Virus record (IMG/VR): IMGVR_UViG_3300017991_000003 | Span: 32,001 to 96,000 of that record | Strand: one strand, 5' to 3' | Source of the DNA: a virus | DNA: 64,000 bases | Shown here: positions 4,716 through 64,000 of the stretch, piece by piece | Layout: every line of letters begins with the position of its first letter | Numbering within the stretch: position 1 is the first letter of the stretch | Made by a program: the position numbers and the translations under genes | The notes under the pieces: model-generated | The model's input: the letters and a program-made list of their open reading frames with translations, nothing else | Databases searched by the model: none | What the model was told of the DNA's origin: nothing

Positions 4716-5612
4716 ATGGGTCCATCCGAACACCGGCTGCTTGAGGGCATGCGCCAGGCACTCTGCCAGGAGGGGCGGGGTCTGGTCGAGCCTATGGAGA
4801 AGGACGCGGGGACGGAGCTCTCCTTCGGCCGACGCCAGGGGTTCCTGGATGAGGAGCAACCAACACTTCGGGCGGCTACTCGAGGTGCCGCGATTGGCGG
4901 GTCCATCGGGGCCTTGGCCTCGACCGCGGCGACGCTGAGCAAGAAAAACCCGTACAAGCCTAAAACACAACAGGCTCGGGCTACGGGCGCCATGTTGGGC
5001 GCGCCTGTGGGTGCCTTGATCGGCGGGAGTATGGGCTCGGCGGCCCAGCGTCGCAAGAAGATGACGGCTAGAGATAAGCGGATCTTCGATCAAGCCACGA
5101 TAGCTGGAGCGGTGCTAGGTGCCGGGGGCATGATCAAGCGCACAGGCTCCCCGACCAAGGCCCTGCTAGGCGCGGGCCTAGGCGCCGCTGCCGGCGCGTC
5201 TCTATCAGCCACAGGCATGCACGCGGCCCGTATGGGCGGCCGAGCGGCAACGAAGCGACCTAAGGAGTCGGGCCCGTCGCTGGGCCCTGTGGGTAAGACT
5301 CTCGGCCTGGCCGCCACGGGCGCCGGCGCGGGTACTTACCTGGCTGGCCGGCTGGCAGCCCGTAAGGTCCCCGGCGCGGGTGCCACCCAGCAGGGGGCGA
5401 TCAACCAGCTGTTCTCGCGTAAGCAGATGCAGCTGGCCAAGCAGCAGATCCGAGGCGCGCGCCTCAAGGTAAAAGCACAAGCTCCCAAGCACTTTCGCTC
5501 TATGGAGCGCAAGGGCGGGGGTATCGGAGCAGCGGTTGGCGCGGGCTTGGCGTTGGGCCTGCTAGCCGCGGAATCACGGCGACGCAAGAACCGGAAACAG
5601 ACTTCCCAATGA
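4716..5612 (+). CDS. Gly/Ala-rich basic protein (glycine-zipper paralog)
   Basis: 298-aa ORF with repeated GAxxGAxxG segments and basic residues. Confidence 0.55.
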   Translation: MGPSEHRLLEGMRQALCQEGRGLVEPMEKDAGTELSFGRRQGFLDEEQPTLRAATRGAAIGGSIGALASTAATLSKKNPYKPKTQQARATGAMLGAPVGALIGGSMGSAAQRRKKMTARDKRIFDQATIAGAVLGAGGMIKRTGSPTKALLGAGLGAAAGASLSATGMHAARMGGRAATKRPKESGPSLGPVGKTLGLAATGAGAGTYLAGRLAARKVPGAGATQQGAINQLFSRKQMQLAKQQIRGARLKVKAQAPKHFRSMERKGGGIGAAVGAGLALGLLAAESRRRKNRKQTSQ

Positions 5613-6112
5613 ACACGAACGAGACGACCCAGAGCCTGGAGCTCGACCTCATGCAGAAGATCGCCACGATCATGCACGAGGACGACGCTGTGACGGTGGC
5701 TGATCATGACCCCTTCCTGTCCCTGAGCGATGGTCTCGGCGCCCACGTCGAGCCTGAGGAGGAGACCAAGGAAGCCGAGGCCCAAGAGGAGCTCGAGGAC
5801 GTGGAGGAGCCTAAGACGGCTCTGGCCAGTATGTCCATGGCTCAGGTCTTCCACGCGCCTGAGTTCCGCGAGGGCGTCCAAGAGGCCCTGGCGGCTCGCG
5901 CTGAGGAGATCAGCGAGGCTGTGACCAAGGTGGCGAAGACGAGCTGGTACTCGAAGCACGTCACCGGTCTCGGCAAGAAGTCGAAGACCATGCGGGAGCG
6001 TGCGAGCGACTGGGTCGGCAAGAACAAGGGCAAAGCCCTGGCTGGCGCTGCCGTCGGTGGCGGCATCGTCGGTGCCGGCGTCGCCAAGGGCTCGAAGGAT
6101 CCCTACGCCTGA
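5609..6112 (+). CDS. Hypothetical protein with acidic N-terminal half and C-terminal glycine zipper
   Basis: 167-aa ORF; ATGA overlap with upstream gene; C-terminal AGAAVGGGIVGAGVAKG. Confidence 0.55.
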   Translation: MNTNETTQSLELDLMQKIATIMHEDDAVTVADHDPFLSLSDGLGAHVEPEEETKEAEAQEELEDVEEPKTALASMSMAQVFHAPEFREGVQEALAARAEEISEAVTKVAKTSWYSKHVTGLGKKSKTMRERASDWVGKNKGKALAGAAVGGGIVGAGVAKGSKDPYA

Positions 6113-44600: not shown

Positions 44601-45409
44601 TTGGTGGGACCTACCCGGGCCCAGACGTGGTGGCTATCCAGGGGACCGCGGTCAACTCGGCGACGCCGACGACGGGTGAGGCCCTGCTCTACTCGGGAAC
44701 GCAGTGGAGCCCTGGGCCGATCAACTTCCTCGAGCTCAACGACGTCGATCCCACAGGCCTGACCAACCTCGACCTGTTCTACTACAGCTCGGCGTCGGGG
44801 ACTATCGTCCGGTCTAGCGGCCTCACGACCTACGCGTTCTACACGCACAGCGGATCGCACATCCACGGACAGTACGACGCAATCGACGGGGATCAGCTAT
44901 CGATCACCCAGCCGGGCGTCAACTACTCCCCGACGACCGACGCGACATACGGCACCAACACGGCGCACCTCGCTGCCCATCTGCGGGGTATCGGTCTGGT
45001 CCTGGAGGATGTCAGTCCCGCGGTCACCAAGCTCGCCGGGATCGAGGCGGGCGCTGAAGCCAACGACGTTCAGACCAAGAGCATCACGATCGAGGCGCCG
45101 ACCACGACGGAAGACATCTCGTTCTTCTACGCTCCGGTAGCGATGACGATCTCAGAGATGGTCACGGTCCTGGTGGGCTCTCCTACGCCGTCCCTAGCGT
45201 GGACGCTCCGGCACAGCACCGACAGGAGCGCTGTGGGCAACGAGGTCATCACCGGGGGATCCACGGCGAATAGTACGACGACCGGTAACGTGCTGACCTC
45301 CTTCAACGACGCAACGGTCCCAGCCAACTCCTTCCTGTGGGTTGAAACGGCGAGCCCCAGCACGAACGTGACGAGCTTCCAGCTCAGCGTTGAGTACACC
45401 GACGACTGA
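41633..45409 (+). CDS. Tail fibre / receptor-binding protein with internal repeats
   Basis: 1258 aa; seven copies of a unit containing TDHGxLxGLxDDDHTQY...GANKGYVD and five copies of a second unit DLxGTYPxPxVVAIQGT; AGGGGAGGA ribosome-binding site before ATG. Confidence 0.7.
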   Translation: MADNVQLYDAHLNLWTLRTSEDTEIHTPHHVSRLADGEGRFYRPGRPVPVSIYGTDGVEINIEAGSIAVSTDHNEDSVAVFGSSTPEGLENFRSLVVDPQGHLQTTVVSAPGVEPVGDSPDAGQLGTVILGVQVGATPASQVTGDGRTAPLIMDDRGRLFVSFGNSVAVLPFTQKGDLLTYDGSDEVVLGPTVDDALLTLDSSTSTGLRWVSPVTSSPSPVLFLREDLTWALPSAGAPGGAAGGDLGGTYPNPSVVAIQGISTSAAAPTPGQTWVYTGSAWSPGSPATGAATDHGTLTGLLDDDHTQYILADGSRDFSGSIGMGGNEITDVASPILVSWAANKGYVDDQITASVITDHGGLGGLGDDDHTQYVLVAGTRAFTGDQSLGGNKITSLGSPTTASDGANKGYVDANVVTDHGALIGLGDDDHTQYILTAGTRAFSGNQSLGGNLITSLGSPTTASGGANKGYVDAAITSAVITDHGGLGGLTDDDHTQYVLVAGTRAFTGSQSLGGNLITSLGSPTVVSDAANKGYVDAQIPTSLPPSGAASGDLGGTYPGPTVVAIQGTGVSANAPSTGDGLVYTGAAWSPTAVYRPGGTDVAVADGGTGASDASTARSNLGLTIGLDVQAHSAVLDATTASYTTAAEGKLSGIETNADVTDTANVTAAGAVMIGTTAAAGDLSGTYPSPTVVAIQGTGVSSTAPSSGQALIYSGTVWSPSTLPSGVTDHGALTGLGDDDHTQYILVGGTRAFTGNQSMGGNLLTSLGSPVAVTDAANKGYVNASITAAVVTDHGALDGLADDDHTQYHNDARALTWLGTRDTDDLDPSATRLYMSPGERTKLAGIEALADVTDAANVAAAGAVMVGDAAGGDLSGTYANPSVVAIQGTGCSSATPTAGQTWVYSGSQWSPGSPAVGGASDHGTLTGLGDDDHTQYILVDGTRAFTGAVSLGGSQINSLASPTLPADAANKGYVDDQIPTSLPPSGAASGDLGGTYPGPDVVAIQGTAVNSATPTTGEALLYSGTQWSPGPINFLELNDVDPTGLTNLDLFYYSSASGTIVRSSGLTTYAFYTHSGSHIHGQYDAIDGDQLSITQPGVNYSPTTDATYGTNTAHLAAHLRGIGLVLEDVSPAVTKLAGIEAGAEANDVQTKSITIEAPTTTEDISFFYAPVAMTISEMVTVLVGSPTPSLAWTLRHSTDRSAVGNEVITGGSTANSTTTGNVLTSFNDATVPANSFLWVETASPSTNVTSFQLSVEYTDD
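42507..43250 (+). repeat. Four tandem in-frame copies of a ~186-bp (62-aa) repeat in the fibre gene
   Basis: DDDHTQY codon strings recur at about 42537, 42731, 42911 and 43101. Confidence 0.85.
43801..44560 (+). repeat. Three further copies of the same 62-aa repeat interleaved with AIQGT-motif units
   Basis: DDDHTQY codon strings at about 43845, 44033 and 44413. Confidence 0.8.
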
Positions 45410-46545
45410 TGAGTGACTTCCTAGTCCAGCGCGATCAGACCGACGTGCCCACCGCCGGCACGACTGCGTCGATCACCGCCGTCTCGAGCCTGAACTCTGC
45501 ATTCGAGATGATGAGCAGCAACCGCCGGATGTCTGGCGGCCCCTCTGCGGTTACGACCAACCAGGAGGCTGATGACCTCTCCGCGGCCGGCGTGCTCACA
45601 GACACGAGCACGATCACCTACTCGCGAGTCTCCGGGTCGAGCTCGAACACGATGCGCTGCGCCATGGAGGTGGTGGAGTACACGGGCCCAGCGGGCGGCC
45701 CCAACGAGTTCATCGTGCGGGGGCGGTACACAGGTCTACTGACCGGCGGCACCAACTCAGTAAGTGTCACCGTGTCCGGTGTCTCTGACAAGGACAGGTG
45801 TATCCCGATCATCACCGGCATCTTGTGCGAGGACACAACGGACGGGGGTGCCCGGGCTACCGGTCTGGTCCTGCTCACAAACGCGACTACCGCAGTGGTC
45901 TATGCAGGCGGGTCCGCCTCTCGTGTGACTGTGCACTTCACGCTAGTTGAGTTCACTGGATCGGCGTGGACTGTCGGGCACGCTGCGGCTGGTCCTGTCT
46001 CGGCTGACTCGGGGTCCGCTACGATCGTCACGGGATCAAACGGCTCGAGCGGAACGACCGTGGATGTCGGGGACTGGGGTACCGCTTGCATCTTCGCGCA
46101 TCATGCGGGCGATCTGGGCTCGGACGCCAATCAGGCCATCGCAGATAACTGGCCCAACATCACACCCACCTCCGGGAGCACGACCTCAGTCGACTACACC
46201 TTCAACTCCCAGCACGACGGGGTCAACAACCTACACCTGGCTCACGTTCTCCAGCACGACGATATGGTCGTGCAGCGGATCACAGACACTGGCAGCCATA
46301 CCGGGGCACGGAACGTGTCGATCCCGTCCACGCTCTCGTCTATTAGCGAGGCTTTCGTGCGAGTGTGCCGAACCTCGAGCGGTGCGGGTACGGCCTACGG
46401 CCGTGGTTGGGTCAACGCCCGGCTGACTACGACCAGCAACGTAGAGCTCTGGGTCCACCGAAACGGCAACTCGATCGATACCCGCATCGAGGTTGTTGAC
46501 CTCTCTAGCATCTCCTCGGCTACCAGGAGGATCTTCGTCGTCTGA
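45409..46545 (+). CDS. Beta-rich tail fibre-associated protein
   Basis: ATG overlaps fibre stop (TGATG); Ser/Thr/Gly-rich 378-aa ORF. Confidence 0.6.
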   Translation: MSDFLVQRDQTDVPTAGTTASITAVSSLNSAFEMMSSNRRMSGGPSAVTTNQEADDLSAAGVLTDTSTITYSRVSGSSSNTMRCAMEVVEYTGPAGGPNEFIVRGRYTGLLTGGTNSVSVTVSGVSDKDRCIPIITGILCEDTTDGGARATGLVLLTNATTAVVYAGGSASRVTVHFTLVEFTGSAWTVGHAAAGPVSADSGSATIVTGSNGSSGTTVDVGDWGTACIFAHHAGDLGSDANQAIADNWPNITPTSGSTTSVDYTFNSQHDGVNNLHLAHVLQHDDMVVQRITDTGSHTGARNVSIPSTLSSISEAFVRVCRTSSGAGTAYGRGWVNARLTTTSNVELWVHRNGNSIDTRIEVVDLSSISSATRRIFVV

Positions 46546-47354
46546 TGACTGACAACATCCGAATCCAGACGGTCGACGGAGAGCGGTGGATCCGCACCTC
46601 CGAGATCGGCGGGGTCCACCACCCACACCACATCGCGCGCCTGTCCGACGGCTTGGGCGTGGTGTACAGTCCGGGCTATCCCGTCCCGGTCTCGATCTTT
46701 TCCGCAGATGGGTCGGCAACCATTACGCTTAGCGGCGGCGACCTAGCTGTTGGTCTGGACCATACCGAGGACTCGATCACGATCTGGGCGCACACCAACG
46801 CGGCGGGCTCCGGCAGCCCTGTCGCTGTCGTGGTCGACACCGATGGCCACCTCCAGGTCGACGTGCTCTCGAGCGATTGGCCGCAGCAACCTTTCGACGA
46901 ACCGGTACCAGCTGAGTACTCCGGCATGGTTATGCTCGGGGTCCAGACGGGTAGCCCTGAAGCACAAGCCACGGATGGCGCCTTCGCGCCCTTCCAGTTT
47001 GACAAGCAGGGTCGCCTGATCGTATCGATCGACCAGTCCTACCAAGGCGGGGCCTTGAAGCTGGTATCGGCCACCAAGACGAGCCCGTTCGTCGTGTGGG
47101 AGGATGATGTGCCCGCCTCTCTCCACTATGTCGACGTCTATCGTTGTTCTGGAACGTACACAATTGGCCTCCCTTCTCCCGCTGATCCCGCGGCAGCGGA
47201 TGGCCGAGTAGTCTGGATCAAGAACATAGGCACAGGCATGCTTACACTGAGTCCTGAAGGCGGGACCCTTGAGCTCAAAGCGGGGCTACTGCTAGCTAGC
47301 CGATCCTCTATCACCTTGCGCTCCAACACTGTAGACGACTGGGAGATTCTCTAA
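46545..47354 (+). CDS. Second fibre-like protein sharing the N-terminal domain of the 41633 fibre
   Basis: Residues 1-130 align by eye with the fibre N-terminus (shared HHxxRLxDG, YxPGxPVPVSI, DPxGHLQ blocks); ATG overlaps upstream stop. Confidence 0.6.
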   Translation: MTDNIRIQTVDGERWIRTSEIGGVHHPHHIARLSDGLGVVYSPGYPVPVSIFSADGSATITLSGGDLAVGLDHTEDSITIWAHTNAAGSGSPVAVVVDTDGHLQVDVLSSDWPQQPFDEPVPAEYSGMVMLGVQTGSPEAQATDGAFAPFQFDKQGRLIVSIDQSYQGGALKLVSATKTSPFVVWEDDVPASLHYVDVYRCSGTYTIGLPSPADPAAADGRVVWIKNIGTGMLTLSPEGGTLELKAGLLLASRSSITLRSNTVDDWEIL

Positions 47355-50198: not shown

Positions 50199-51593
50199 CT
50201 AGTAGGCAGCCTGACCACCGCTGCTCGCCATGTCCTGGACAGGGCCGAGCTGCGCGAACCGCATGTCGTAGAGATCCCATTGAACACGATAGGGTTGGTC
50301 GACCGCACCGTCTCGGACCTTGCCGAGCTTCATGTCGATGACGCGGGCGTTGTTACCGGCATCCTTCGGCGGTACCAGGAAGACGAGGTTGTTGGAGTCG
50401 TGCGAGATGCTCTGGCTGAAAGCCACAGCATCAGCGTTCGACCGGGCCAGCGTGCCTTCATTTCGGCGCAGCTGCGTGGCCAGCATGTAGTGACGGTTGG
50501 ACATCAGCGTATGCAGACGCATCTGCCGCATGTTGCCCTCCACCTTCTGCCAGCGCTCCTTACCAGGGCCCTCCATGTAGTAGAAGCCGTCGATCAAGAC
50601 CAGGTCCGCGCCAAACTCCTCAGCCTGTGCGGCAACCTGATCAGGAGTCGTAGCCTGGTTAGGGCCCACGATGCGCAGGTTCTCACCAACGCGAGCGTGC
50701 GGCCCGTCTGCTTTCAGGCTACGCAATGCCTCGAAGTAGGCCGCCTTCTCCACGTCACTTAGCTTCTGCTTCATGAGGCGGTTGAAGCTAGTGCTCGAGA
50801 GCACCGCGGCTTGGCGTCGAGCCACATCGATGGGTGCCATCTCCAGACTGACGATCAAGACCCGAGCGCGGGCGGCGTCCTTCTGCTCCTGCGTCCACGC
50901 CGGGATGTCGGGTGGGCGGTGGAAGATGTAGGGATCTCCCAGGAGGCCGGCGGCACTGTTGAGCACGATGAACCAAGTCTTGCCGAGGCCGGTAGGAGCC
51001 ACACAGCTGGTGATCTGCGCAGGGTGCCAGCCCCCAAGCTGTTCCTGAATGAACAGGAACGGACAAGGGATGCCGAGCTTCACGCCGGCCAGCCGATCGT
51101 TGTAGTCCTGCTCGAGATCCTCAGCGTACTCTCGGAAGTCCTTGATCTCCGTCTTGTGTGCCGAGTACCTAGCTTGCAACGTATGAGCGTACAAGGACAT
51201 CGCGTCCTTGATGTCGAACGGGTCGGTGCGCTCGGTCAGCTGCTTGTGAAGATCCTGAAGGCTCTCTAGCACATCTACACGCACCGCCTCCTTAGCGACT
51301 TCGTCGTAGAGAACCGAGATGCTCGCTTCCGGGATCTCAGTACCAGCCAAGATCGTGGGAAGCTCAGGCCAGGCGCGCTGCGCCGTGTCAGGCGTAGGAA
51401 GCTCGTTGTACTGTGCTCGGTACCCGACGACCCACTCGATGATCTCCGTCATCGGCTCTTGAAAGAACCCGGGGTTGAGTCCGTTCTTGGCGACGTGGTG
51501 GTCGAAGGCGGCTAGGTTCCGGTCACTCAGGATCTTGGTCAGGAAGAGAGCCTCGACCCTGTCTCGAGAGTTGACGTTGGTGAACCCGGTCAC
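50199..51593 (-). CDS. DnaB-like replicative DNA helicase
   Basis: Walker A APTGLGKT, SLEM motif VLIVSLEM, LVLIDGFYYM and LATQLRRNEG segments. Confidence 0.75.
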   Translation of the reverse strand: MTGFTNVNSRDRVEALFLTKILSDRNLAAFDHHVAKNGLNPGFFQEPMTEIIEWVVGYRAQYNELPTPDTAQRAWPELPTILAGTEIPEASISVLYDEVAKEAVRVDVLESLQDLHKQLTERTDPFDIKDAMSLYAHTLQARYSAHKTEIKDFREYAEDLEQDYNDRLAGVKLGIPCPFLFIQEQLGGWHPAQITSCVAPTGLGKTWFIVLNSAAGLLGDPYIFHRPPDIPAWTQEQKDAARARVLIVSLEMAPIDVARRQAAVLSSTSFNRLMKQKLSDVEKAAYFEALRSLKADGPHARVGENLRIVGPNQATTPDQVAAQAEEFGADLVLIDGFYYMEGPGKERWQKVEGNMRQMRLHTLMSNRHYMLATQLRRNEGTLARSNADAVAFSQSISHDSNNLVFLVPPKDAGNNARVIDMKLGKVRDGAVDQPYRVQWDLYDMRFAQLGPVQDMASSGGQAAY

Positions 51594-52159
51594 TGGTATA
51601 GCCCCAGCTCAATAGCTGTTCGGTACTCGCGATGCACCGGATAGGTCTCGATCACCTCTCTCGGGCAGATCACTAGCGTGACCTTGTTTGCAACTGATAG
51701 GCGCGGTGTGAGGATGCCTGACACACTTCGACAGAACCTATCAGAGACGTCGTACGGCGGGAGACCTGTCAGGACGGCGAAAGGACAAGCACGGAGCTCT
51801 TCCCACATGGTCAGCTCAGCGTTTTCGATGCGCGGCTGGTCACGGATAATGGCTCGCTCGGCTGCCGCAATGTCACACCAGAGCAGCCAGTCAGCCCGCC
51901 ACCGGTAGAGCGCGTACAGGGTCTTGAGATCGGCTAGAAACTCGGCATCAAGCTCGACGGCGTGGACGTATCCAGGCTGTTTTGCTAGCCGCGGTTCCCA
52001 ACGTTCTTGCTCAGCCGGGGTAGGTTCGGGCAGATCTTGGAGGGCCTGGATGACGGGAGCAGGGAACCCGTAGTCCGCCAACCAATCAGAGCCAGTCCCT
52101 CTGATCCTCTTCAAGTTGTCGCAGACCCCGTGGTCCGCGGGCCAGATTCGATAGCTCAT
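51590..52159 (-). CDS. Hypothetical protein
   Basis: 189-aa ORF; GTGA overlap with the helicase start. Confidence 0.5.
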   Translation of the reverse strand: MSYRIWPADHGVCDNLKRIRGTGSDWLADYGFPAPVIQALQDLPEPTPAEQERWEPRLAKQPGYVHAVELDAEFLADLKTLYALYRWRADWLLWCDIAAAERAIIRDQPRIENAELTMWEELRACPFAVLTGLPPYDVSDRFCRSVSGILTPRLSVANKVTLVICPREVIETYPVHREYRTAIELGLYQ

Positions 52160-56900: not shown

Positions 56901-57127
56901 TAAAAAGCTCCTTGGTGAATCAACCGGAGCAGAGCTCCGGAGGTGAAAGGTGCCCCACCCGCCGAGAGGCGAGTGGGGCGGTTGCCAGGATGCACACGAA
57001 CTACTGGAGTGGTGGACCTGAGCTGAGCCGGAGTATGGCACCGGATCGAGCCGGATTCAGTGACTGCGTATAGCTCGTTGGGTTTGTCTACCTCGTGGAT
57101 GAGCTCGGAGTCACGACTCGAGCGGAG

Positions 57128-57289
57128 TCGCCTGCCTCGAGCTCATTGTTGCCATCATCTCGTCTGGTTGATGAGATGGCGGCGGCTCCTCCTCTCCTGT
57201 TATCCTGCGCTTACAGTATTCTCGGTGCCCGAGCTCGACCCATCTCGTCAACCTGACGCGATGATGGCAACAATGAGCTCGAGGCAGGC
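57128..57289. repeat. 31-bp perfect inverted repeat pair separated by 100 nt
   Basis: 57128-57158 is the exact reverse complement of 57259-57289, verified base by base. Confidence 0.9.
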
Positions 57290-57438
57290 GCCGCAGCGAG
57301 AGGCGCCGTGGCTCAGCCTCGTGGTGGGCAAACCCACGAGTTATTCGCAGACACTGAAGCCGGCCCGGTTGACATGCTCTGGCTCAGCTCAGGGTCTACC
57401 CGTAGGTGCAAGTGTGGCCGAGGTTGCTGTTGCGCTAT

Positions 57439-57457
57439 CTGCGGCGATGCGCCGCAG
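57439..57457 (+). repeat. Hairpin motif copy 1 (CTGCGGCG-ATG-CGCCGCAG)
   Basis: 8-bp stem, 3-nt loop; shares core GGCGATGCGCCGC with two other copies. Confidence 0.8.
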
Positions 57458-57785
57458 GACCCTCAAGTCAAGAGGGAATAGCTCTTCGTGTGCGGGGATT
57501 CCAAGGCAAGAGCCTGGATGGGCGCGCAGAGCATGATCCCGGTCGTGGAGGCGTGCCCGAGCTTTGTACGCGACCCGGTTCGGGTCGAGGATAAAGCGAA
57601 GGACCAGCACGCTGTAACGATCCGTGGATTATGCTCCGCGCTGTCCCAGCCAGCGCTTCGTTGGTAGTGGGAGGCGCCTCCGCTAGGAGGCGACGTCCTC
57701 GAGTTGCGCTACTGAAGCGACCACACATGCTGGCATGTGTAGCTTCAGGTGCGCAGTGCTCGAGGCCCACGACCAGTCGTACAGT

Positions 57786-57802
57786 GGCGGCGATGCGCCG
57801 CC
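57786..57802 (+). repeat. Hairpin motif copy 2 (GGCGGCG-ATG-CGCCGCC)
   Basis: 7-bp stem, 3-nt loop; same core. Confidence 0.8.
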
Positions 57803-58040
57803 TGAAGACGTTGTGGATTAGGCCTCCGGTAGGCCCGTTCCAGTCTTTCTACTCCCTTGGAAAGGTAGTCACCTCTTGCGAGGCTGGCTGGCTACCTTGG
57901 TATCGGCGCTCGTAGAGACTACCCGGTCACACGCCCGCCGGAGGCGGGCTTGTGGACGCGTGGTCTCAACGTAATGTGTCACAGGAGACAGCTCGAGGCG
58001 CAGCTCGAGCGGGCCTCCGGCCACAGTTTCTATCACTTGA

Positions 58041-58053
58041 CGGCGATGCGCCG
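58041..58053 (+). repeat. Hairpin motif copy 3 (CGGCG-ATG-CGCCG)
   Basis: 5-bp stem, 3-nt loop; same core. Confidence 0.75.
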
Positions 58054-58265
58054 CCGCGGAAGTCAGATGGGCTAGCTAGACCACTTCTTTCCTTGCTCCG
58101 CCGAAGATGTACCTGTTGGCAGCCCTGGTACTGGGCTTTTGGCTATGAAGAACGGATCATCGGGGCCAACTACCCTCCTGCTCTTCGTGCCTGTTGGTAC
58201 CGGCCTTTGGCCGGCAGCCGAGCCTGCTCCGGATTATGTGGAGCAGACTCGGTTCACTTGGTGCG

Positions 58266-58733
58266 CTAGCCGCGCTCCTTGACGGGGACCTTCATGATGA
58301 GGACGTCGCCCTCCTTGAGGGTCATCCCGTCGGTCACCTCCTGGCCGCCGATGTGCGGCTTCGACCCCTCGGGGGTGCCGAAGCGGCGAGCGTACTCGGT
58401 CCGCGCGTCGGCGACCGAGGTGCCGGCGGCGACGTTGAGGCGGCCGGGCTCGCCCAGACCGTCGGTGGCCGCGGCGGTGACCGTGGCGACCGGACCCGCC
58501 TGCGGGGTCTCCTGGGTCGTCGGCGCCGTCGTGGCGGTGGGAGCGGTGCGCGTCACGGCGACGGCCACCTCGGTGTCCGTGGGCAGACCCGTGGTCTGGT
58601 CCCACTTGGTCGGATCCGAGTGGTCGACCTCGTAGAGCACGGGGTTGCCGGCCGCGTCGTTCGCGGGGGAGTCGGCGTAGCGGATGCGACGGTTGAGGGT
58701 GTCGAACGCGGGGCGCTTGATGTTTCCGGTCAT
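58266..58733 (-). CDS. Beta-grasp (ThiS/MoaD/ubiquitin-like) domain protein with N-terminal extension
   Basis: C-terminal ~60 aa (GRLNVAAGTSVADARTEYARRFG...TLKEGDVLIMKVPVKERG) matches the ThiS/MoaD pattern by eye; ends in a single Gly; no clear ribosome-binding site. Confidence 0.5.
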   Translation of the reverse strand: MTGNIKRPAFDTLNRRIRYADSPANDAAGNPVLYEVDHSDPTKWDQTTGLPTDTEVAVAVTRTAPTATTAPTTQETPQAGPVATVTAAATDGLGEPGRLNVAAGTSVADARTEYARRFGTPEGSKPHIGGQEVTDGMTLKEGDVLIMKVPVKERG

Positions 58734-58756: not shown

Positions 58757-59491
58757 TCAGGTGAGTTGGAGGGAGTGCTGCGTCTGCGGCGCGGCTTTCC
58801 CACCGAGCACGTCGACCACGATGGTGTTGAAGCTGGGCTTCATCGGGTCGTCGATCGTCAGGACCTGGGCGAACCAGGTCTGCAACATGGCCTGGGCGAC
58901 CGCTTGGTTCGCCAGAGCCAGTTGCGGCTGCGTCTCGTACTCCTGGGTGCAGTCCAGCTGATCGGGAAACTCGTTCCCAGGAGTCTCATGACGCATCTCG
59001 GGGTTCCGTTCGGTGAGCGACGCGCAGACGTCCTCGCTGTTGATGCGGCGCCAGAGCATGGCCTGGCCGCTGTCGAGGTCGTTGCCGCCGTCCACCCACG
59101 TGAACTCGTCGAGCTTGTCGAGCTGCTCCTCGAGGAAGCAGCGGGTCTTGTTGTTGTCCACGCAGCCGAACAGCGTGACGCCCTCGACCAACCACTCACG
59201 GTGGTGGTTCAGGAGCCGATCGCTCAGGTACATGGAGATCACCCGGACGTCCAGGCCCGGGAAGGTGTCTCGCAGGGTTCGGGCCATGATCTCGGCTTTG
59301 TTCTGGCCGATGGCCGCGGCGCCGTGCTGGCGCGCGAGGTTGTGGTCCTCGACCTCGTCGCCGTCGATGATGAAGAGGGTCGGATTCTGGATCCGATCCC
59401 CCACCATCTCAGGCGGGTGGGCGAGAAGACGAGCGAGCGGCTCGGCTAGGTGGTAGCCGATGCCGCCCGCTCCGAGGATGGCGTAGATCAT
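58757..59491 (-). CDS. E1-like adenylyltransferase (ThiF/MoeB family)
   Basis: Start at MIYAILGAGGIG (Rossmann GxGxxG); IIDGDEVEDHNLARQ matches the E1 Arg-finger; GCVDNNKTR matches the conserved DN..R segment. Confidence 0.7.
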   Translation of the reverse strand: MIYAILGAGGIGYHLAEPLARLLAHPPEMVGDRIQNPTLFIIDGDEVEDHNLARQHGAAAIGQNKAEIMARTLRDTFPGLDVRVISMYLSDRLLNHHREWLVEGVTLFGCVDNNKTRCFLEEQLDKLDEFTWVDGGNDLDSGQAMLWRRINSEDVCASLTERNPEMRHETPGNEFPDQLDCTQEYETQPQLALANQAVAQAMLQTWFAQVLTIDDPMKPSFNTIVVDVLGGKAAPQTQHSLQLT

Positions 59492-59495
59492 GAGG

Positions 59496-61394
59496 TCAGG
59501 GGTAGATGGGGAGGGTGGCTTCTGTTTCGGACTTGTTGCAGAAGGCGATCTCCTCGAGGAGGACATCGTCTTCCATGTCGTCGGGGTCCTCGAGGACTCC
59601 GTCCATCTCGAGCACCAGTCGATCCATCTGATCGAGGATCTCTTGGTAGTCCTTGCGGTAGGGAATGCCGGCGTTCTGGGCCGCCTTGCGGACGACAAAG
59701 TAGGTCAGCCGGAACCACTCGAGCAGGACGCCGTCGGAGTCCTCTCGCGAGAATGCCTCGACGTAGCTCAGGTTGGTCTCGATCACGGTCTCGATCACGG
59801 TGTCGATCGACGTCTCGGGGAACACAGTTTTCACCGTCGGGTCGGCGTAGACGTATTTCGAGAGCTTGTCGATCCGGGCATCCAGTGCGATCGACTTGAA
59901 TAGCCGGTCGAGAAGGTCGTCGATGCGATTCATCACCTCGTCGATGACGTCTCGAACCAGCATGCTGTAGAGGGTCTGACGACTCTCGGATGCGCTGTTC
60001 TGCGCTTCTTCGACGATCTCTTCGATCGTGGGGGCGTTATCGAACCACTCACTGGTCGAGGCGTGGTTCATGAGCAGATGCAGGGCTAGGGCCGTAGCGT
60101 TGCTCGACGTCAGACTGTCCTTGAACGAGGTGCAGTACGCCCACACGGCTCGTGGGAAGGTCGTTTGCTGACCCTCCGCCTTCTTGATCAGCTGAAGGGG
60201 GTAGTGCGCTTGCGGTGAGATCACCATGCCGTAGAAGCCGGTGTGCATCCGCTGGATGCGGAACTTCTTATCAGCGACCAGCGAAGGGCCAGAGGCTGTC
60301 TTGCTGACAGGTACCAGTGAGGTAGTCGTCTTCTTCGTCGTCTGGCCAAGGCCACCCTGCGCCCCCGTACCCCCAGTCTTGCCGCCAGGAGTCGAAGGCG
60401 TACCCGCTTTGCCGCCGGTCCACTTTTTCGAGCCATAGCCGCCATACCTGCTGGTCTTGGCTTTCTTCTCCGCCTCCTTGATGGCCTCGCTGGCCAACTT
60501 GAACGTGGTAAGACAACGGGCGGCCTCGCCCATCCTGTCCTTCCAACGCCCCAGGCTTTCCATCGACCCACAGAAGGTCATCACAGTGCTCGTGTCGACG
60601 TCCTCGAGCTTGTCGACGCTGAGACCGACGGCGAGCTCGTCGGGATCGACCCCGGCCTTCAGCATGGCTTCGCACAGTCCGGGGTGGGCGACCCGGTTCA
60701 GCCACAGCTGAATCAGATCCAGGCCGCCCTCCACGAAAGGGATGTCGAACAACTCCTCGAGACCGGTCGCGTGGCGGATGCCCTGCGCCTTCTCGTTGCG
60801 GTAGCCGGGGAGGGCGGTGACGAACGACGGGCACACCGAGAAGGGCGGCTTGTCCACGTTCCCGAAGGTGATGTGGAAGCCCGTCTGGTTGAGCTCGTTG
60901 GCGTCGTCGGTCGAGCTGTGGTAGGCTCCACCAGCGCCGTGACTGTGCGCGGTGCCGACGCAGATGAACTCGACAAGCTCTCCATCCTCGCAGATGGGGC
61001 AAGCGTTGCCGGCTTCGAGCTCGATCGAGCCGATGCGACAGGTCGTGCAGAAGCTCTTGACGTTGGGATCGTACTTCACGTGCCCCGCGGAGGCGGTGTA
61101 CCACGGCGGACTGACGAGGGTGTAGGCGTCGTCGACCGGCCCTCGGTGGAAGAGCACGAAGGCCTCGGTCTTCCACAGGCGGTAGACCTCGGCGAAGTAG
61201 CGGTAGACGAACATCGTCTCCGCCATGGAGATCTTGGGCCAGTTGGTGAGGTCCAGGTCACGCTGGATCTGGTCGGTTTCACCGAGGTCCTCGGCCCGGG
61301 CGGGAACGAAGGCCTGAGCCCAGGCGGCCCCGCCTGGGCCGATGGTCTTCAGCACGTGGGCTTGGTTGCCCTTGTAGTAGATGTCGGTGGTCAT
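59496..61394 (-). CDS. JAB/JAMM metallopeptidase-domain protein with zinc ribbon and large C-terminal domain
   Basis: Exact JAMM signature HSHGAGGAYHSSTDD preceded by CTTC...CPIC; GC3-rich codons checked across the gene; start at internal Met giving ATGA overlap with upstream gene. Confidence 0.7.
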   Translation of the reverse strand: MTTDIYYKGNQAHVLKTIGPGGAAWAQAFVPARAEDLGETDQIQRDLDLTNWPKISMAETMFVYRYFAEVYRLWKTEAFVLFHRGPVDDAYTLVSPPWYTASAGHVKYDPNVKSFCTTCRIGSIELEAGNACPICEDGELVEFICVGTAHSHGAGGAYHSSTDDANELNQTGFHITFGNVDKPPFSVCPSFVTALPGYRNEKAQGIRHATGLEELFDIPFVEGGLDLIQLWLNRVAHPGLCEAMLKAGVDPDELAVGLSVDKLEDVDTSTVMTFCGSMESLGRWKDRMGEAARCLTTFKLASEAIKEAEKKAKTSRYGGYGSKKWTGGKAGTPSTPGGKTGGTGAQGGLGQTTKKTTTSLVPVSKTASGPSLVADKKFRIQRMHTGFYGMVISPQAHYPLQLIKKAEGQQTTFPRAVWAYCTSFKDSLTSSNATALALHLLMNHASTSEWFDNAPTIEEIVEEAQNSASESRQTLYSMLVRDVIDEVMNRIDDLLDRLFKSIALDARIDKLSKYVYADPTVKTVFPETSIDTVIETVIETNLSYVEAFSREDSDGVLLEWFRLTYFVVRKAAQNAGIPYRKDYQEILDQMDRLVLEMDGVLEDPDDMEDDVLLEEIAFCNKSETEATLPIYP

Positions 61395-61816
61395 GTGGTG
61401 ATCAGGGGTGGGTGGAATCGACGTAGGACGGTCAAGACCGCCTGGGTGTCTTCGTTGATGTCTTGCTCGGCTAGTAGGTGATCGAGCCGGCGCATCCAAT
61501 CACGTAGGGTCGTGAGCTGCTCGGGGCCCATGCTCGCCGGAGGGTCGACGACAGGACGTCGGTCGCTCTCGTCTCGGATCAAGTTGAAGCGGATGTTGTT
61601 GATCCTTCCACCGTCTAGCGCAACTGGATAGGTGCGTTGGAAGATCTGACCAAGAGCCTCGATCATCTCTCGAGTAAGACCCGTCCCCTCAAGATCGAGA
61701 AGGTGCGGTCGGTTCTCGAGGATCCGAGATAGAAGCTCCTCGCGTCTCCGGATAATGGCCTGGTGATCATTGTGTCGATCACGCGCGCCTTGCACGGTGT
61801 CCAGAATGGTGGTCAT
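61391..61816 (-). CDS. Hypothetical protein (operon member)
   Basis: 141 aa; ATGA overlaps at both ends (61813-61816 and 61391-61394). Confidence 0.55.
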   Translation of the reverse strand: MTTILDTVQGARDRHNDHQAIIRRREELLSRILENRPHLLDLEGTGLTREMIEALGQIFQRTYPVALDGGRINNIRFNLIRDESDRRPVVDPPASMGPEQLTTLRDWMRRLDHLLAEQDINEDTQAVLTVLRRFHPPLITT

Positions 61817-62655
61817 CGGACCACCTCTCGCCACTTCTCGGCCGCCGTACCGAGCTCCCGGCCCAGTACGATCTCATCGACGTCCGTCTGCCAGGTCATG
61901 ATGCGATCCTCGGTCCAGCGCTGCCATCGACAGAACTGCCAGAGCATGACAGTGTTCATGTTCAGGCCCAGATCACGCCGCCTGTCGTAGTCGGTGTAGT
62001 CACCTTCGGGGAGTTGCTCGAAGTACGGGACCTCTCGAAGCGCTTCGGGAACCTCAAACCCCTCAGGGAGCGGCCCGCTGAAAGGTGGCATGGTCAGGGA
62101 GTGCTCGTAGTGCGCGTTGTAGCCGGACTCGTTGATGAGCTTGAGGACCATCTCCGGGATCGACTGGAGCCCGTTGTACCGGTACTGGCGGAACACAGCA
62201 CCCGTGCACATGCCTCCCGTATCTTGCTGGTTCGGTAGGAATGATTTGTACAGAACCGGGGTGTACCCCGCCTCCAGATGCGGCTGCTGCTTGGTGAAGA
62301 AGCAGCGGGCATCGGAGAGGCGCCCGTCGTAGATCGAGATGATGAAGACGCGCGCAGGCATGGCGACCAGGAATCGAAGACCCTCCGGCCAGCCGCGGTT
62401 CTCGCGGACGTCGATGGAGATCCTCTCAGCCCGCGGAGGCACGACTGCCATGAAGTGCTCGTTGTGGGCATCCTTGGTGTGTGCCAGGATGTTTACGTAG
62501 GGGTGGTACGGAAAGAGGGCGCCAGCGCGCCGGCCTCGTTCCTCGAGGGCGGTCACGACGTCTTCTTCCCGCGTGATGCGGTTGACGTGAACCGTTTGAT
62601 GGATCACGTGACCATCGACGATGACGAGTCGATCGTGGGTTTCGAAGTTGGTCAT
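61813..62655 (-). CDS. Hypothetical protein (operon member, candidate effector)
   Basis: 280 aa; ATGA overlap with the RT stop at 62652-62655. Confidence 0.6.
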   Translation of the reverse strand: MTNFETHDRLVIVDGHVIHQTVHVNRITREEDVVTALEERGRRAGALFPYHPYVNILAHTKDAHNEHFMAVVPPRAERISIDVRENRGWPEGLRFLVAMPARVFIISIYDGRLSDARCFFTKQQPHLEAGYTPVLYKSFLPNQQDTGGMCTGAVFRQYRYNGLQSIPEMVLKLINESGYNAHYEHSLTMPPFSGPLPEGFEVPEALREVPYFEQLPEGDYTDYDRRRDLGLNMNTVMLWQFCRWQRWTEDRIMTWQTDVDEIVLGRELGTAAEKWREVVR

Positions 62656-63755
62656 GGGAGGTACGCGCGTGTCTCGGCGCTGTAGTTGGTGGGGGTGTTG
62701 TGGTGCACGTCTTGCGCGACACGCAGTTGTAGTTGGAGCGAGGCTCCTTGATCAGGGTTGATGAAGTTGACGTGGTTGACGAGGCCGGCGAGGTGGTCAA
62801 AGTTCACCGGCACAGGGCCTCGGTGCGTCAGCTCTCCCCCACGGGGACAGCGGCCGAAGTGCGCGTCGCAGATGATCTTGTGCAGCCGGGCGCGAAGCGC
62901 GCGCCGTCGAGGCCTGGGAGCGCTTAGCTTCTCGTTGACGACGACGCCGCAGACCGTCATGCGACTGCCGATGGAGCGGAATCGGATCTTTTCGGGGGCG
63001 ACCTTGTAGCCCAGCTTTTTCAGGAACCCGATGACGGGGTACTGGAACTGGTACAGCTTTCTGTAATCCGCCGTGAAGGTCATGTCGTCGCTATAGCGGG
63101 TGTACGCGATCGGCAGGAGTCTGATCTGAGTCTGCGTCTTTCGCCGGCGCTCTCCGTGGTTGTCGACCCACCGCATCGTGGGGTTGGTCCGCCAGGACTC
63201 GATCAGCTTCAGGATGCCGAAGTCCACCTGAGCCCCTGCCAGGTTGGAGAGGAAGGGGGACGTGGGGGCTCCTTGTGGTAGGCCACCATCCAAGAAGCAG
63301 GCGCGTTTGACTCTGTCAAGGAAGAGCCTGTCGGCACGTGACATCGGTTGCATGTACCCCCTGGTCAGGAAGTACTCCAGCTGCTCGAGGACGACGTGGG
63401 GAGACACGGACGGGAAGAAGTCCCGCAGATCGATGTCCAGCTTGTACCGGTGACCTACATGCGGGGCGGCGTTGGTGTGGATACCACGCTTGCGGACGTA
63501 GGCATGAGCTGCTGGGGAGGCCCCGATCCCGAGCGCTTTGAGCTCGCTGAGGATGAGCTTTTGAGCAGCCATTAGCTCCGGGCAAGGGATCTGGAGCTTT
63601 CGCATCTTCTGACGTGTCCGACCGTTCGAAAGCGTCTCGAGTACCGGGACTTCTCGACCATCCCGGGTACGCCTGGTCTTGGGGATTCGTGCGAATCGGT
63701 AGTGCTCAGCTTGAGCGGTGTCCGTCAGGACATTGAATGATGGGTAGCCAGCCAT
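62652..63755 (-). CDS. Reverse transcriptase, retron-type
   Basis: TNAAPH (NAxxH), YKLDIDLRDFFPSV, GLPQGAPTSPFLSNL (QGxxxSP), YTRYSDDMTF (YxDD), RMTVCGVVVN (VTG-like); GAGGG ribosome-binding site 6 nt before ATG. Confidence 0.8.
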   Translation of the reverse strand: MAGYPSFNVLTDTAQAEHYRFARIPKTRRTRDGREVPVLETLSNGRTRQKMRKLQIPCPELMAAQKLILSELKALGIGASPAAHAYVRKRGIHTNAAPHVGHRYKLDIDLRDFFPSVSPHVVLEQLEYFLTRGYMQPMSRADRLFLDRVKRACFLDGGLPQGAPTSPFLSNLAGAQVDFGILKLIESWRTNPTMRWVDNHGERRRKTQTQIRLLPIAYTRYSDDMTFTADYRKLYQFQYPVIGFLKKLGYKVAPEKIRFRSIGSRMTVCGVVVNEKLSAPRPRRRALRARLHKIICDAHFGRCPRGGELTHRGPVPVNFDHLAGLVNHVNFINPDQGASLQLQLRVAQDVHHNTPTNYSAETRAYLP

Positions 63756-63814
63756 GATCTACCCTCAGATGACGGCGCAGATTGCGCTCAAGGCAAGAAG
63801 TAGCATGTGCTTCA

Positions 63815-64000
63815 CTCCGTGGTTTGAGGAAGTAGCGGGAGGTCCGCCTGGTGAAAGGCCTGGAAGATCGCCGAGGCGACGGTCTTCAGACGGCTTTCGA
63901 AGATCAGGTGGTCCGGGTGAGACATCTCCCCAGCGGGCGGGAGCTCTTTGAACAGCCGGTCGATGATGGCTACGAGCAGGTCGTTAGCGTCGGCCTGGCT
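63815..64000 (-). CDS. Hypothetical protein, 5-prime part outside window
   Basis: Reverse-complement frame open from the window edge to TGA at 63815-63817 (...LPQTTE*); GC3-rich codons. Confidence 0.5.

Follow-up and report, generated by a model that had tools for sequence, protein, structure and literature searches.

Ubiquitin-like conjugation systems of the Bil, Bub and CBASS Cap2 types and retrons have all recently been active topics in the study of phage–host conflict, and so far they have been treated separately. Retron effectors are often translationally coupled to the reverse transcriptase (RT). The function of the PRTRC-type cassettes has, to our knowledge, never been tested experimentally. 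PRTRC cassettes (NCBIfam 'ParB-related, ThiF-related cassette') encode a stand-alone E2-like protein (protein B, Prok-E2_D), a JAB protein (protein A), a single-domain ThiF-type E1 and a small ubiquitin-like protein (Ubl; protein C, Prok_Ub) that ends in x-K-G (TKG), and they are tied to plasmid ParB genes. Judged by composition, PRTRC seems equivalent to operon type 6d, which combines a Ubl, a JAB protein, an E1, an E2 devoid of the classical His and an α-helical protein that diverges rapidly (Iyer, Burroughs and Aravind, 2006; PMC1779556). The Bil system (BilABCD; Types I and II, as defined in PMC10557695 and the Bub preprint) consists of a Ubl, an E2, a JAMM deubiquitinase and an E1 with no E3 gene, and for this system attachment to lysines of proteins has been demonstrated (Chambers et al., PMC10557695; Hör et al., bioRxiv 2023.09.04.556158). 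The Bub (6E) operons and CBASS Cap2/Cap3 are further bacterial E1, E2 and JAB or other-peptidase systems on mobile elements.

Here, we describe an operon in which genes for a retron-type RT and for a predicted Ubl conjugation pathway are translationally coupled. It lies in a viral stretch of 64 000 nucleotides, referred to below as the window (positions 32 001–96 000 of IMG/VR record IMGVR_UViG_3300017991_000003). Six genes, all on the minus strand, encode the RT (63755..62652, 367 amino acids), a 280-residue protein (62655..61813), a 141-residue protein (61816..61391, from the ATG of MTTILDT), a JAMM protein (61394..59496, 632 amino acids from the ATG of MTTDIYY), an E1-like protein of the ThiF/MoeB type (58757..59491, 244 amino acids) and a predicted Ubl (58266..58733, 155 amino acids). 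A GTG 18 nucleotides upstream provides an alternative start for the 141-residue protein, which would lengthen it to 147 residues. Both open reading frames between the RT and JAMM genes display a coding pattern, with GC contents at codon positions 1, 2 and 3 of 0.64, 0.40 and 0.79 for the 280-residue protein and of 0.68, 0.41 and 0.65 for the 141-residue protein.

The initial annotation placed these two reading frames at 61391–62655 and joined them to the RT and JAMM genes through ATGA overlaps. This is correct, and the three stop/start overlaps are seen on the plus strand as 'tcat' at 62652–62655, 61813–61816 and 61391–61394. It also took such overlaps for the strongest linkage that a sequence can provide, but they are routine between neighbours in this genome. 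Overlaps of one or four nucleotides are the norm across the window (for example 4716..5612 with 5609..6112, 50199..51593 with 51590..52159 and 45409..46545 with 46545..47354), and because they are so common the overlaps alone are weak evidence of linkage. Conserved gene order is the stronger evidence.

The 280-residue protein and its predicted partners

Neither the 280-residue nor the 141-residue protein matches a family in Pfam, PADLOC or NCBIfam, in agreement with their earlier description as unknown. For the 280-residue protein, Pfam and NCBIfam yield nothing even at an E-value of 10. A loose resemblance to an E2 had been noted in its YHPYVN segment, together with the lack of a Cys at the expected spacing. 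The segment is indeed present at residues 50–55, but it is not conserved, with only two prolines being kept, and the invariant motif of the family is found 90 residues further downstream. This motif, which we propose as the E2 active site, spans residues 140–155 (LPNQQDTGGMCTGAVF; 62191..62238, minus strand) and contains Asn142 (codon 62230–62232) and Cys150 (codon 62206–62208), both codons having been read directly. Its core LPNqqdtGgmCtG, or L-P-N142-x7-C150-x-G-x2-F, is invariant in the family and retains the spacing of the classical HPN-x7-Cys motif, so that a Cys does occur exactly where it is expected, eight residues after the Asn. Asn142 and Cys150 are invariant in the 15–17 sequences of two alignments, RT-less relatives included, and are kept down to 11–17% overall identity. 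Leu takes the place of the His of HPN. E2s of the 6d/PRTRC type likewise do without this His; however, 6d and Bil E2s have a downstream invariant His, which in Bil stands beside the catalytic Cys, whereas no invariant His is present anywhere in the alignments of the 280-residue family.

When aligned with hhalign to a eukaryotic E2 (the eukaryotic comparison sequences were entered by hand), the single best match, 'YHPNINSNGSICLD', falls on the stretch containing Asn142 and Cys150, and the same stretch is chosen against PRTRC protein B ('ILNVFVDGSLCWGN'). The probability against E2 profiles is only about 2%, with a pairwise E-value of about 0.02. More distant relatives extend the picture. A 712-residue protein from a Candidatus Vogelbacteria genome (L012) is matched to the family with a probability of 94.9% and an E-value of 4e-8, and in the same region it has a PRTRC_B match at an E-value of 0.059. 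From a Metabacillus plasmid, the protein encoded at the equivalent place in its operon matches the family with an E-value of 3e-4. The remote-homology and fold searches that had been suggested gave a divided outcome: Prok-E2_D is matched by a family member (E-value 0.013), by the L012 relative (0.0066) and by the Metabacillus relative (0.0012), all three below the 25-bit cut-off and all covering the same region, but Foldseek finds no significant match in the PDB for the structure model of the 280-residue protein (pLDDT 62, from a 14-sequence alignment). The whole family comprises roughly twelve clusters of sequences out of billions of proteins.

These data support the earlier E2-like guess. 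The 280-residue protein is most probably a strongly diverged E2, and we predict it to be a conjugating enzyme of the UBC superfamily resembling Prok-E2_D and PRTRC protein B. It would add a very divergent E2 family in which only the Asn-x7-Cys core is kept. Alternatively, the protein could stand outside the conjugation pathway as an unrelated β-sheet scaffold, a substrate or a structural protein, its N-x7-C pattern being a coincidence. Such a role would fit the lack of significant Foldseek matches in the PDB and the low hhalign probability, as well as the BFVD search, in which the significant matches are uncharacterised phage proteins only. However, the non-significant NTF2-like and other β-sheet matches span 49–70 residues compared with 96–116 for E2s, and a chance pattern is hard to reconcile with the invariance of Asn142 and Cys150 and with Prok-E2_D matches over one region in three independent relatives. 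Moreover, the gene occupies the position of PRTRC protein B, and without this assignment the cassette would lack an E2 next to its E1, Ubl and JAMM protein. We consider this alternative quite improbable.

The likely partners of this candidate E2 are encoded downstream. The E1-like protein is a single adenylation domain with GxGGxG, DGD-x2-E-x2-N-x2-R54 and Lys65; it also carries C110-V-D112-N-x3-R117 and an invariant Cys181. It matches Pfam ThiF (4.7e-14) and, in PADLOC, the E1–E2 (Cap2-like) models (1e-8). Its best NCBIfam match is PRTRC_ThiF (5.8e-15, below the cut-off), and TcdA, SAE2, UBA7, UBA5, MoeB, ThiF and Cap2 are among its PDB profile matches. The JAMM protein has the catalytic-type residues Glu77 and H150-S-H152-x7-S160-x2-D163, and a zinc-ribbon insert with four cysteines (Cys116, Cys119, Cys132 and Cys135). 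Its C-terminal part is made up of a Gly/Lys/Thr-rich linker followed by a poorly conserved helical region of about 230 residues. The match to Prok-JAB (2.8e-5) is slightly under the cut-off and that to PRTRC_A is weak. The catalytic motifs of the E1, the JAMM protein and the RT are all invariant among orthologues.

The 155-residue protein is predicted to be a Ubl. Its N-terminal domain (about 95 residues) is conserved, and its C-terminal domain (about 60 residues) terminates in K-x-R-G, of which Lys152, Arg154 and Gly155 are invariant in seven orthologues. The window Ubl ends at this Gly, while two of the seven orthologues continue for one or two residues and one is minimal, with 78 residues. 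The L012 orthologue (74 residues, ending in AKG) has weak matches to ThiS and ThiS-like families. The match of the Ubl to SUMO is weak and non-significant.

On this basis, it is probable that the 280-residue protein serves as the E2 of a complete ubiquitin-like conjugation cassette distantly related to PRTRC/6d. We infer all steps of the following cycle. The JAMM protease would trim the Ubl where residues follow the C-terminal Gly. The ThiF-type E1 would then adenylate the terminal Gly, possibly with a thioester on the invariant Cys181, and the Ubl would move to Cys150 of the E2-like protein, eight residues past Asn142 as in classical E2s. From there it would be transferred to target proteins, and the JAMM protease could later reverse the conjugation.

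The likeness to PRTRC extends to gene order, B-A-ThiF corresponding to E2-JAMM-E1; both small Ubls end in x-[KR]-G, and protein B carries the same N-x7-C-x-G motif as the 280-residue protein. Real PRTRC proteins match the Pfam models strongly (6.7e-30, 1e-24 and 8e-18, the first being protein B against Prok-E2_D). In contrast, the window E1 reaches 55 bits where the PRTRC cut-off is 145, the JAMM protein reaches 20 bits where it is 102, and the 280-residue protein and the Ubl do not match the PRTRC family models. Because all of the window proteins fall below the PRTRC family cut-offs, the cassette is, as judged from its sequences, a distant relative of PRTRC and not a member. Unlike PRTRC, the operon lacks a ParB partner and proteins D, E and F, and no JAB-N/DUF2016 domain is detected in its JAMM protein, which instead has the zinc ribbon and is extended by about 380 residues at its C terminus. 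The N-terminal domain of the Ubl, the retron-type RT and the 141-residue protein are additions with respect to PRTRC, and the carrier is a large phage rather than a plasmid or an integrative element.

The four-part logic of Ubl, E2, JAMM protein and E1, without a gene for an E3, is shared with Bil, where the Ubl also has a C-terminal Gly and at times needs trimming by the JAMM protein. Unlike in Bil, the window E1 has one ThiF domain in its 244 residues, and the operon is phage-borne and linked to an RT, whereas the Bil operon serves in host defence. Bub and Cap2 contain various fusions of E2, E1 and peptidase, while all parts are separate genes here. Bub works through oxyester intermediates and has a DUF6527 serine protease, whereas the E2-like protein of the window retains its Cys, and in CBASS it is the cyclase and not a Ubl that is conjugated.

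Relatives and conserved gene order

All related loci were retrieved via the JAMM protein, of which 17 homologues were found. The order RT, E2-like gene, reading frame of 119–162 residues, JAMM, ThiF and Ubl is kept in nine distinct loci from different metagenomes, although the JAMM proteins, where measured, are down to about 25–30% identical between loci. Adjoining gene ends mostly overlap across these nine phage-type loci, and no complete one lacks the RT or its translational coupling with the E2-like gene. The carriers are virus-like genomes (large uncultured phages) and not host defence islands. The E2-like gene is accompanied by E1-like, Ubl and JAB genes in all nine phage-type loci as well as in L012 and L014. 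One might have expected homologues that never adjoin RT or E1 genes if the initial annotation were wrong; instead, relatives of the 280-residue protein always adjoin an E1.

The RT, the protein in the 141-residue slot and the C-terminal JAMM extension co-occur and are also jointly absent. In particular, the Candidatus Vogelbacteria genome has the E2-like/JAMM/E1/Ubl core with neither an RT nor a 141-residue gene. The genes downstream of its 712-residue E2-like protein encode a JAMM protein that aligns with the entire PRTRC_A model (5.6e-13), a ThiF protein that matches PRTRC_ThiF at 4.8e-12 and the 74-residue Ubl ending in Gly. Bacillales megaplasmids also carry the core without an RT. Because the L012 bacterium has this core without the RT and the 141-residue gene, the core is a self-contained module, predicted to act in ubiquitin-like conjugation, and not a retron-specific effector. 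To this core, a clade of large uncultured phages would have added a retron-type RT, translationally coupled at the 5′ end, and, between the E2 and JAMM genes, a hypervariable helical protein of about 140 residues; the JAMM protein would have acquired its long C-terminal extension and most of the Ubls a domain at the N terminus.

A protein of 119–162 residues fills the slot between the E2-like and JAMM genes in every phage-type locus. These proteins are hypervariable, with 18–25% identity and only three invariant columns. The window protein contains no cysteine and is predicted by single-sequence AlphaFold2 to be composed of helices only (pLDDT 40). Comparisons with PRTRC protein E and the other PRTRC or 6d components, with the slot protein of Metabacillus and with the whole length of the L012 protein revealed no similarity. 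From its position, the 141-residue protein is most simply seen as a fast-evolving accessory subunit, for example a target adaptor or a regulator.

Reverse transcriptase and adjoining structured region

The RT matches Pfam RVT_1 (4.4e-14). Its best 25 matches in PADLOC are all retron RT models, with RT_III-A at the top (2.4e-44), and in NCBIfam it matches retron_St85_RT at 1.8e-38 (132 bits against a curated cut-off of 235), ahead of group II (2e-10) and Drt2 (1.4e-4) models. The catalytic YSDD (residues 221–224) and the other RT motifs are invariant in six orthologues. The protein further contains [N/M]AxxHVG, a 'VCG' thumb and, unlike retron RTs, an additional conserved C-terminal region of about 90 residues. 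[N/M]AxxH and V-x-G, both conserved in the orthologues, are reportedly hallmarks of retrons. The predicted enzyme is thus retron-type with its catalytic motifs intact, as the initial annotation had it. We know of no retron type in Mestre et al. 2020 that uses E1, E2 or JAMM proteins; full-text literature searches returned no report of such a retron, and a pairing of an RT with a ubiquitin-like cassette was not found in the searchable literature.

The role of a retron effector, which had been suggested for the adjoining proteins, is not established, as no msr/msd RNA was found and the core exists without an RT. The operon could still represent a genuine retron of novel type, in which msDNA made by the RT from a nearby non-coding RNA restrains the downstream genes as an effector module until a trigger frees them. 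The exclusive retron matches and motifs of the RT, its coupling to the E2-like gene in all complete phage-type loci, as in retrons, and its joint presence or absence with the 141-residue slot and the JAMM extension all point in this direction. The RT nevertheless scores under the NCBIfam retron cut-offs, and neither Rfam nor the spacers upstream of the RT provide an msr/msd-like RNA, the 57-nucleotide spacer 5′ of the gene and the divergent intergenic region of about 180 nucleotides being too short for one.

A possible template lies on the other side of the operon, which is followed by a gene-free and highly structured gap of 1.37 kb (56901..58265) whose membership in the system is uncertain and for which Rfam gives no match. 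It contains a giant imperfect hairpin at 57002–57408 (z-scores −16 and −19). Such hairpins, 0.9 kb downstream, fold better when read antisense to the operon, as would a cDNA-like complement of its transcript. Yet a comparable hairpin exists in three of the seven complete loci and is missing in four, and no a1/a2-like repeats above shuffled controls flank it. Together with the existence of the conjugation core as a unit without an RT, this makes a new type of retron rather doubtful.

A related reading, which we put forward tentatively and regard as possible, is that the phage clade possesses a new RT system in which a retron-lineage RT is functionally coupled to a complete Ubl conjugation machine. 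The template may then be unconventional, for example a long structured RNA adjoining the operon, and the RT-made DNA or the RT itself might gate, target or be modified by the conjugation. The hypervariable 141-residue protein and the C-terminal extension of the JAMM protein would be the coupling parts. If true, reverse transcription would be connected for the first time with ubiquitin-like tagging, and the user of this connection would be a virus and not its host. A functional coupling would also offer a testable system for roles of retron-type RTs besides toxin guarding, and a way to ask what PRTRC-type cassettes do.

Finally, the operon may not belong to a conflict system but be a core replication or genome-maintenance module of the phage clade, in which Ubl conjugation, perhaps aided by DNA from the RT and by the neighbouring structured region, regulates or primes replication proteins. 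This we regard as unlikely. We know of no mechanism that ties an RT or Ubl conjugation to phage replication, and no ParB or other significant Pfam domain is detected among ten neighbouring genes of L001. The search via the JAMM protein would also miss related phages without the operon. On the other hand, the operon always sits between one and the same divergent gene block and a replication module with an O-like initiator, DnaB, a primase, a DNA polymerase and helicases, and PRTRC, the closest known cassette, accompanies plasmid ParB. The hairpin-region GC content ranges from 36 to 60% across loci, where measured, and synteny over such a range suggests long vertical inheritance. The gap itself is origin-like, with large hairpins and palindromes conserved among relatives: GGCGGCG-ATG-CGCCGCC is present in three copies (57439–57456, 57785–57802 and 58038–58055), and the palindrome also occurs in L003 and L005.

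Layout and conservation of the operon

The operon lies on the minus strand and its genes follow one another in the order RT (63755–62652, 367 aa), 280-aa protein (62655–61813), 141-aa protein (61816–61391), JAMM-type protein (61394–59496, 632 aa), ThiF-type E1 (59491–58757, 244 aa) and a predicted ubiquitin-like protein of 155 aa (Ubl; 58733–58266) with the C-terminus KERG. On the plus strand 'tcat' stands at 62652–62655, 61813–61816 and 61391–61394, and the three ATGA overlaps by which the initial annotation saw the 280-aa and 141-aa ORFs locked to the RT and JAMM genes are therefore real. That they are the strongest linkage a sequence can show was an overstatement, as adjacent genes throughout the window often overlap by 1 or 4 nt. 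Both ORFs have a codon-position GC pattern of the coding type, and neither protein matches any of the Pfam, PADLOC or NCBIfam models.

Nine distinct phage-type loci were gathered from the contigs of JAMM relatives and from a metagenome scan. The order RT, E2-like protein, ORF of 119–162 aa, JAMM, ThiF and Ubl is retained in all nine, with gene ends that mostly overlap and with JAMM identities among the loci down to 24–30%. It is because of this conserved order that the two ORFs can be said to belong with the neighbouring genes, and relatives of the 280-aa protein indeed adjoin RT and E1 genes in the nine loci. All of these loci were reached via the JAMM protein, and synteny extends to their wider surroundings, so that they represent one phage lineage.

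The replication and recombination genes of the window (among them DNA polymerase, DnaB, primase, helicases, a UvsX-like recombinase, a Cas4-like exonuclease and an O-like initiator) are of phage type, and a 1258-aa protein (41633–45409) gives many collagen-like repeat matches to phage tail-fibre families. The sequence is present as a viral contig in IMG/VR and in ENA/JGI assemblies of 174–193 kb, and searches of 50,697 GenBank phage records with the region, the JAMM protein and the 280-aa protein gave no match in DNA or protein. The gene preceding the RT (63812–64000 and beyond; 8242–8844 in L001, the numbering of this locus in the set of relatives) specifies a protein of 200 aa that includes a hydrophobic segment. 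In more distant loci this position is taken by a membrane/coiled-coil protein of 66–92 aa, and the gene therefore does not count among the conserved members of the operon.

The 280-aa protein as a putative E2

The 280-aa protein comes close to being an orphan: by word index it retrieved only itself, and a single-sequence search of 1.84 billion representative proteins gave four matches. Its relatives were obtained via the neighbouring JAMM protein (17 relatives) and their contigs. Asn142, Cys150 and Asn180 are invariant in a first alignment of 17 sequences and a second one of 15; Pro52 and Pro100 are invariant or almost so, and conservation is at least 90% at Pro141 and Ser177. The core motif of the family is L-P-N-x4-G-x2-C-x-G-x2-F. 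The initial annotation had missed a cysteine at the expected spacing; Cys150 follows Asn142 by eight residues, which is the spacing of the classical E2 motif HPN-x7-C. The segment that had been likened to an HPN motif, YHPYVN (residues 50–55), is conserved in the family at its prolines only and was dropped as a candidate.

In direct comparisons with E2 enzymes and known structures, no single line of support is strong. Using hhalign against seven hand-entered eukaryotic E2 sequences, a single match was obtained, FLPNQQDTGGMCTG / YHPNINSNGSICLD, with a probability of about 2% and a pairwise E value of 0.02. An AlphaFold2 model based on 14 sequences is of mediocre quality (pLDDT 62) and has the element order helix, β-meander, PN loop, Cys, short helix, long helix. 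No significant match to this model was found in the PDB using Foldseek, and the family profile gave one chance ribosomal match among PDB sequences. The model does match three uncharacterized phage proteins in BFVD (A0A7R7G2H5, A0A6J5P0Y8 and A0A6J5MFC0; Foldseek E value of about 2e-5, probability 1.00), and further viral relatives that are missed by sequence searches may thus exist.

The best support for an E2 assignment comes from intermediate sequences, each of which is weak when taken alone. Residues 398–536 of a 712-aa protein from Candidatus Vogelbacteria match the 280-aa family with an hhalign probability of 94.9% (E value 4e-8), and the same residues match Pfam Prok-E2_D (E value 0.0066) and NCBIfam PRTRC_B (0.059). 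One member of the 280-aa family itself reaches an E value of 0.013 against Prok-E2_D. A 300-aa protein at the equivalent operon position on a Metabacillus plasmid matches both Prok-E2_D (E value 0.0012) and the 280-aa family (hhalign E value 3e-4); all three of these Prok-E2_D matches stay below the 25-bit cut-off. A genuine protein B of the plasmid-borne PRTRC cassette (275 aa; Prok-E2_D E value 6.7e-30) contains N-x7-C-x-G. Combining these weak lines with the operon context, we consider the 280-aa protein to be quite probably an E2.

The predicted conjugation cassette with and without the RT

The remaining conjugation proteins look functional from their conserved residues. The E1 retains GxGGxG, DGD-x2-E-x2-N-x2-R, Lys65, CVDN-x3-R and an invariant Cys181, and it matches solved E1 structures, TcdA, MoeB, ThiF and Cap2. 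The JAMM protein retains Glu77 and H-S-H-x7-S-x2-D together with an invariant four-Cys insert. This insert is a zinc ribbon, CxxC...CxxC (residues 116–135), placed ahead of the HxH motif; residues from about 250 to 632 form a Gly/Lys/Thr-rich low-complexity linker followed by a helical C-terminal region of low conservation. At the C-terminus of the 155-aa protein, K-x-R-G is invariant; in two orthologues one or two residues follow the glycine, and these could be trimmed by the JAMM protein. One orthologue is a bare Ubl of 78 aa, and in the other six of the seven the N-terminal domain (residues 1–95, 58449–58733 in the window) with the pattern NxxRPxFxPxGRRIKYAxSP...WDQxTGLP is conserved. We infer the mechanism proposed for the conjugation cassette from knowledge of the families.

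The Candidatus Vogelbacteria locus (JACRKE010000020.1, 2593–6511) encodes an E2-like domain, JAMM, ThiF and Ubl consecutively, in proteins of 712, 294, 225 and 74 aa. The 712-aa protein consists of a membrane/coiled-coil N-terminal part and the E2-like C-terminal domain, the JAMM protein matches PRTRC_A (5.6e-13), and the Ubl (C-terminus AKG) matches ThiS-type models weakly; PRTRC protein C (Prok_Ub) ends in TKG. The locus links the phage family to PRTRC. It contains neither an RT nor a homologue of the 141-aa protein, which implies that the conjugation module is self-contained. Its JAMM orthologue also lacks the zinc ribbon, the linker and the C-terminal region. Only the phage lineage has the RT, the 141-aa slot protein and the zinc ribbon with the long C-terminal extension of the JAMM protein; these features occur together, in most loci along with the Ubl N-terminal domain.

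On Metabacillus plasmid pB218 (NZ_CP088246.1, 4501–7417) the cassette consists of the 300-aa E2-like protein, a 135-aa Ubl, JAMM and ThiF, all annotated as hypothetical proteins. The slot between the E2-like and JAMM genes is thus taken by the Ubl, a Lys-rich protein that has a disordered N-terminal tail and ends in GAKG. This cassette is preceded at a distance of 1.4 kb by a gene of the RNA ligase family, and similar matches occur on Lysinibacillus, Cytobacillus and Rossellomorea megaplasmids.

The slot protein of the phage lineage (119–162 aa) is present in every phage-type locus and diverges rapidly, with identities of 18–25% and three invariant columns; an HMM built from seven sequences fails to detect those of three further loci. 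The 141-aa protein has no cysteine, and its single-sequence AlphaFold2 model (pLDDT 40; helices only, with a disordered middle) is unusable for a fold search. The family has no similarity to the Candidatus Vogelbacteria fusion protein, the Metabacillus slot Ubl or PRTRC protein E, and homology to any of the PRTRC proteins could not be demonstrated. Operons of type 6d carry a 'rapidly diverging alpha-helical protein' (Iyer et al., PMC1779556). From its position and rate of change, the 141-aa protein may be an accessory adaptor or regulator. The idea that its lack of lysines (0 Lys) guards against self-tagging was rejected, as a low-GC orthologue has several.

Among known systems, the PRTRC cassette and operon type 6d are the closest, followed by Bil and then by Bub and CBASS Cap2/Cap3. 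The PRTRC order B-A-ThiF is the same as E2-JAMM-E1 here, but the proteins of the window score far below the family cut-offs and the operon has no ParB partner, which sets the operon outside PRTRC proper. It likewise falls outside Bil, as its E1 is single-domain and its E2-like protein is without the conserved His. Judged from its sequence, the operon represents a highly divergent conjugation cassette of the PRTRC-like kind, joined to a retron-type RT by a phage lineage. This arrangement was not found in the literature on retrons or RTs combined with ThiF, JAB or ubiquitin-like genes, in a search to which subscription journals were mostly closed.

The retron-type RT and the non-coding elements

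The RT has its best matches exclusively among retron RT models (PADLOC and NCBIfam), and both its catalytic motifs and its retron-like ones are invariant. An msr/msd RNA was not found using Rfam in gathering and E-value modes, alignments of upstream intergenic regions, flanking-duplex tests or a promoter/terminator scan of the gap after the operon. The RT is preceded by spacers that are too short for an msr/msd and resemble promoters and ribosome-binding sites. Of the proposal that the two ORFs occupy the place of a retron effector, the retron-type RT stands, while the failure to find an msr/msd and the occurrence of the conjugation core without an RT speak against an effector role. Just upstream of the RT start (63756–63812; 8845–8900 in L001), a non-coding stretch some 55 nt long is about 80% identical between L001 and the related loci L003 and L005, compared with about 50% for their RT proteins, and contains a small GCGC-stem palindrome and the ribosome-binding site.

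The operon is followed by a gene-free, densely structured gap of 1.37 kb. After the Ubl gene it contains a giant imperfect hairpin of about 400 nt (57002–57408; 15255–15650 in L001; z-scores of −16 and −19), and L008 (4808–5135) and L009 (11433–11926) have counterparts at the same place, giving a range of 330–500 nt. The three hairpins are unrelated in sequence, and the GC content of the hairpin region varies from 36 to 60% among these loci. They fold better by 15–53 kcal/mol on the operon-antisense strand, with more G–U pairs, a pattern that would fit an antisense RNA, an origin of single-stranded DNA or a cDNA copied from the operon transcript. The hairpin is missing from four of the seven complete loci (L003, L010, L017 and L019), and no a1/a2-like flanking repeats were found; it was therefore rejected as a feature that defines the system and is not counted among its parts. 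The same gap holds three copies of an 18-nt palindrome, GGCGGCG-ATG-CGCCGCC (57439–57456, 57785–57802 and 58038–58055). The palindrome recurs in the corresponding gaps of loci L003 and L005, the proteins of which are about 40–60% identical, and the copies could act as elements of operator, iteron or terminator type beside the replication module.
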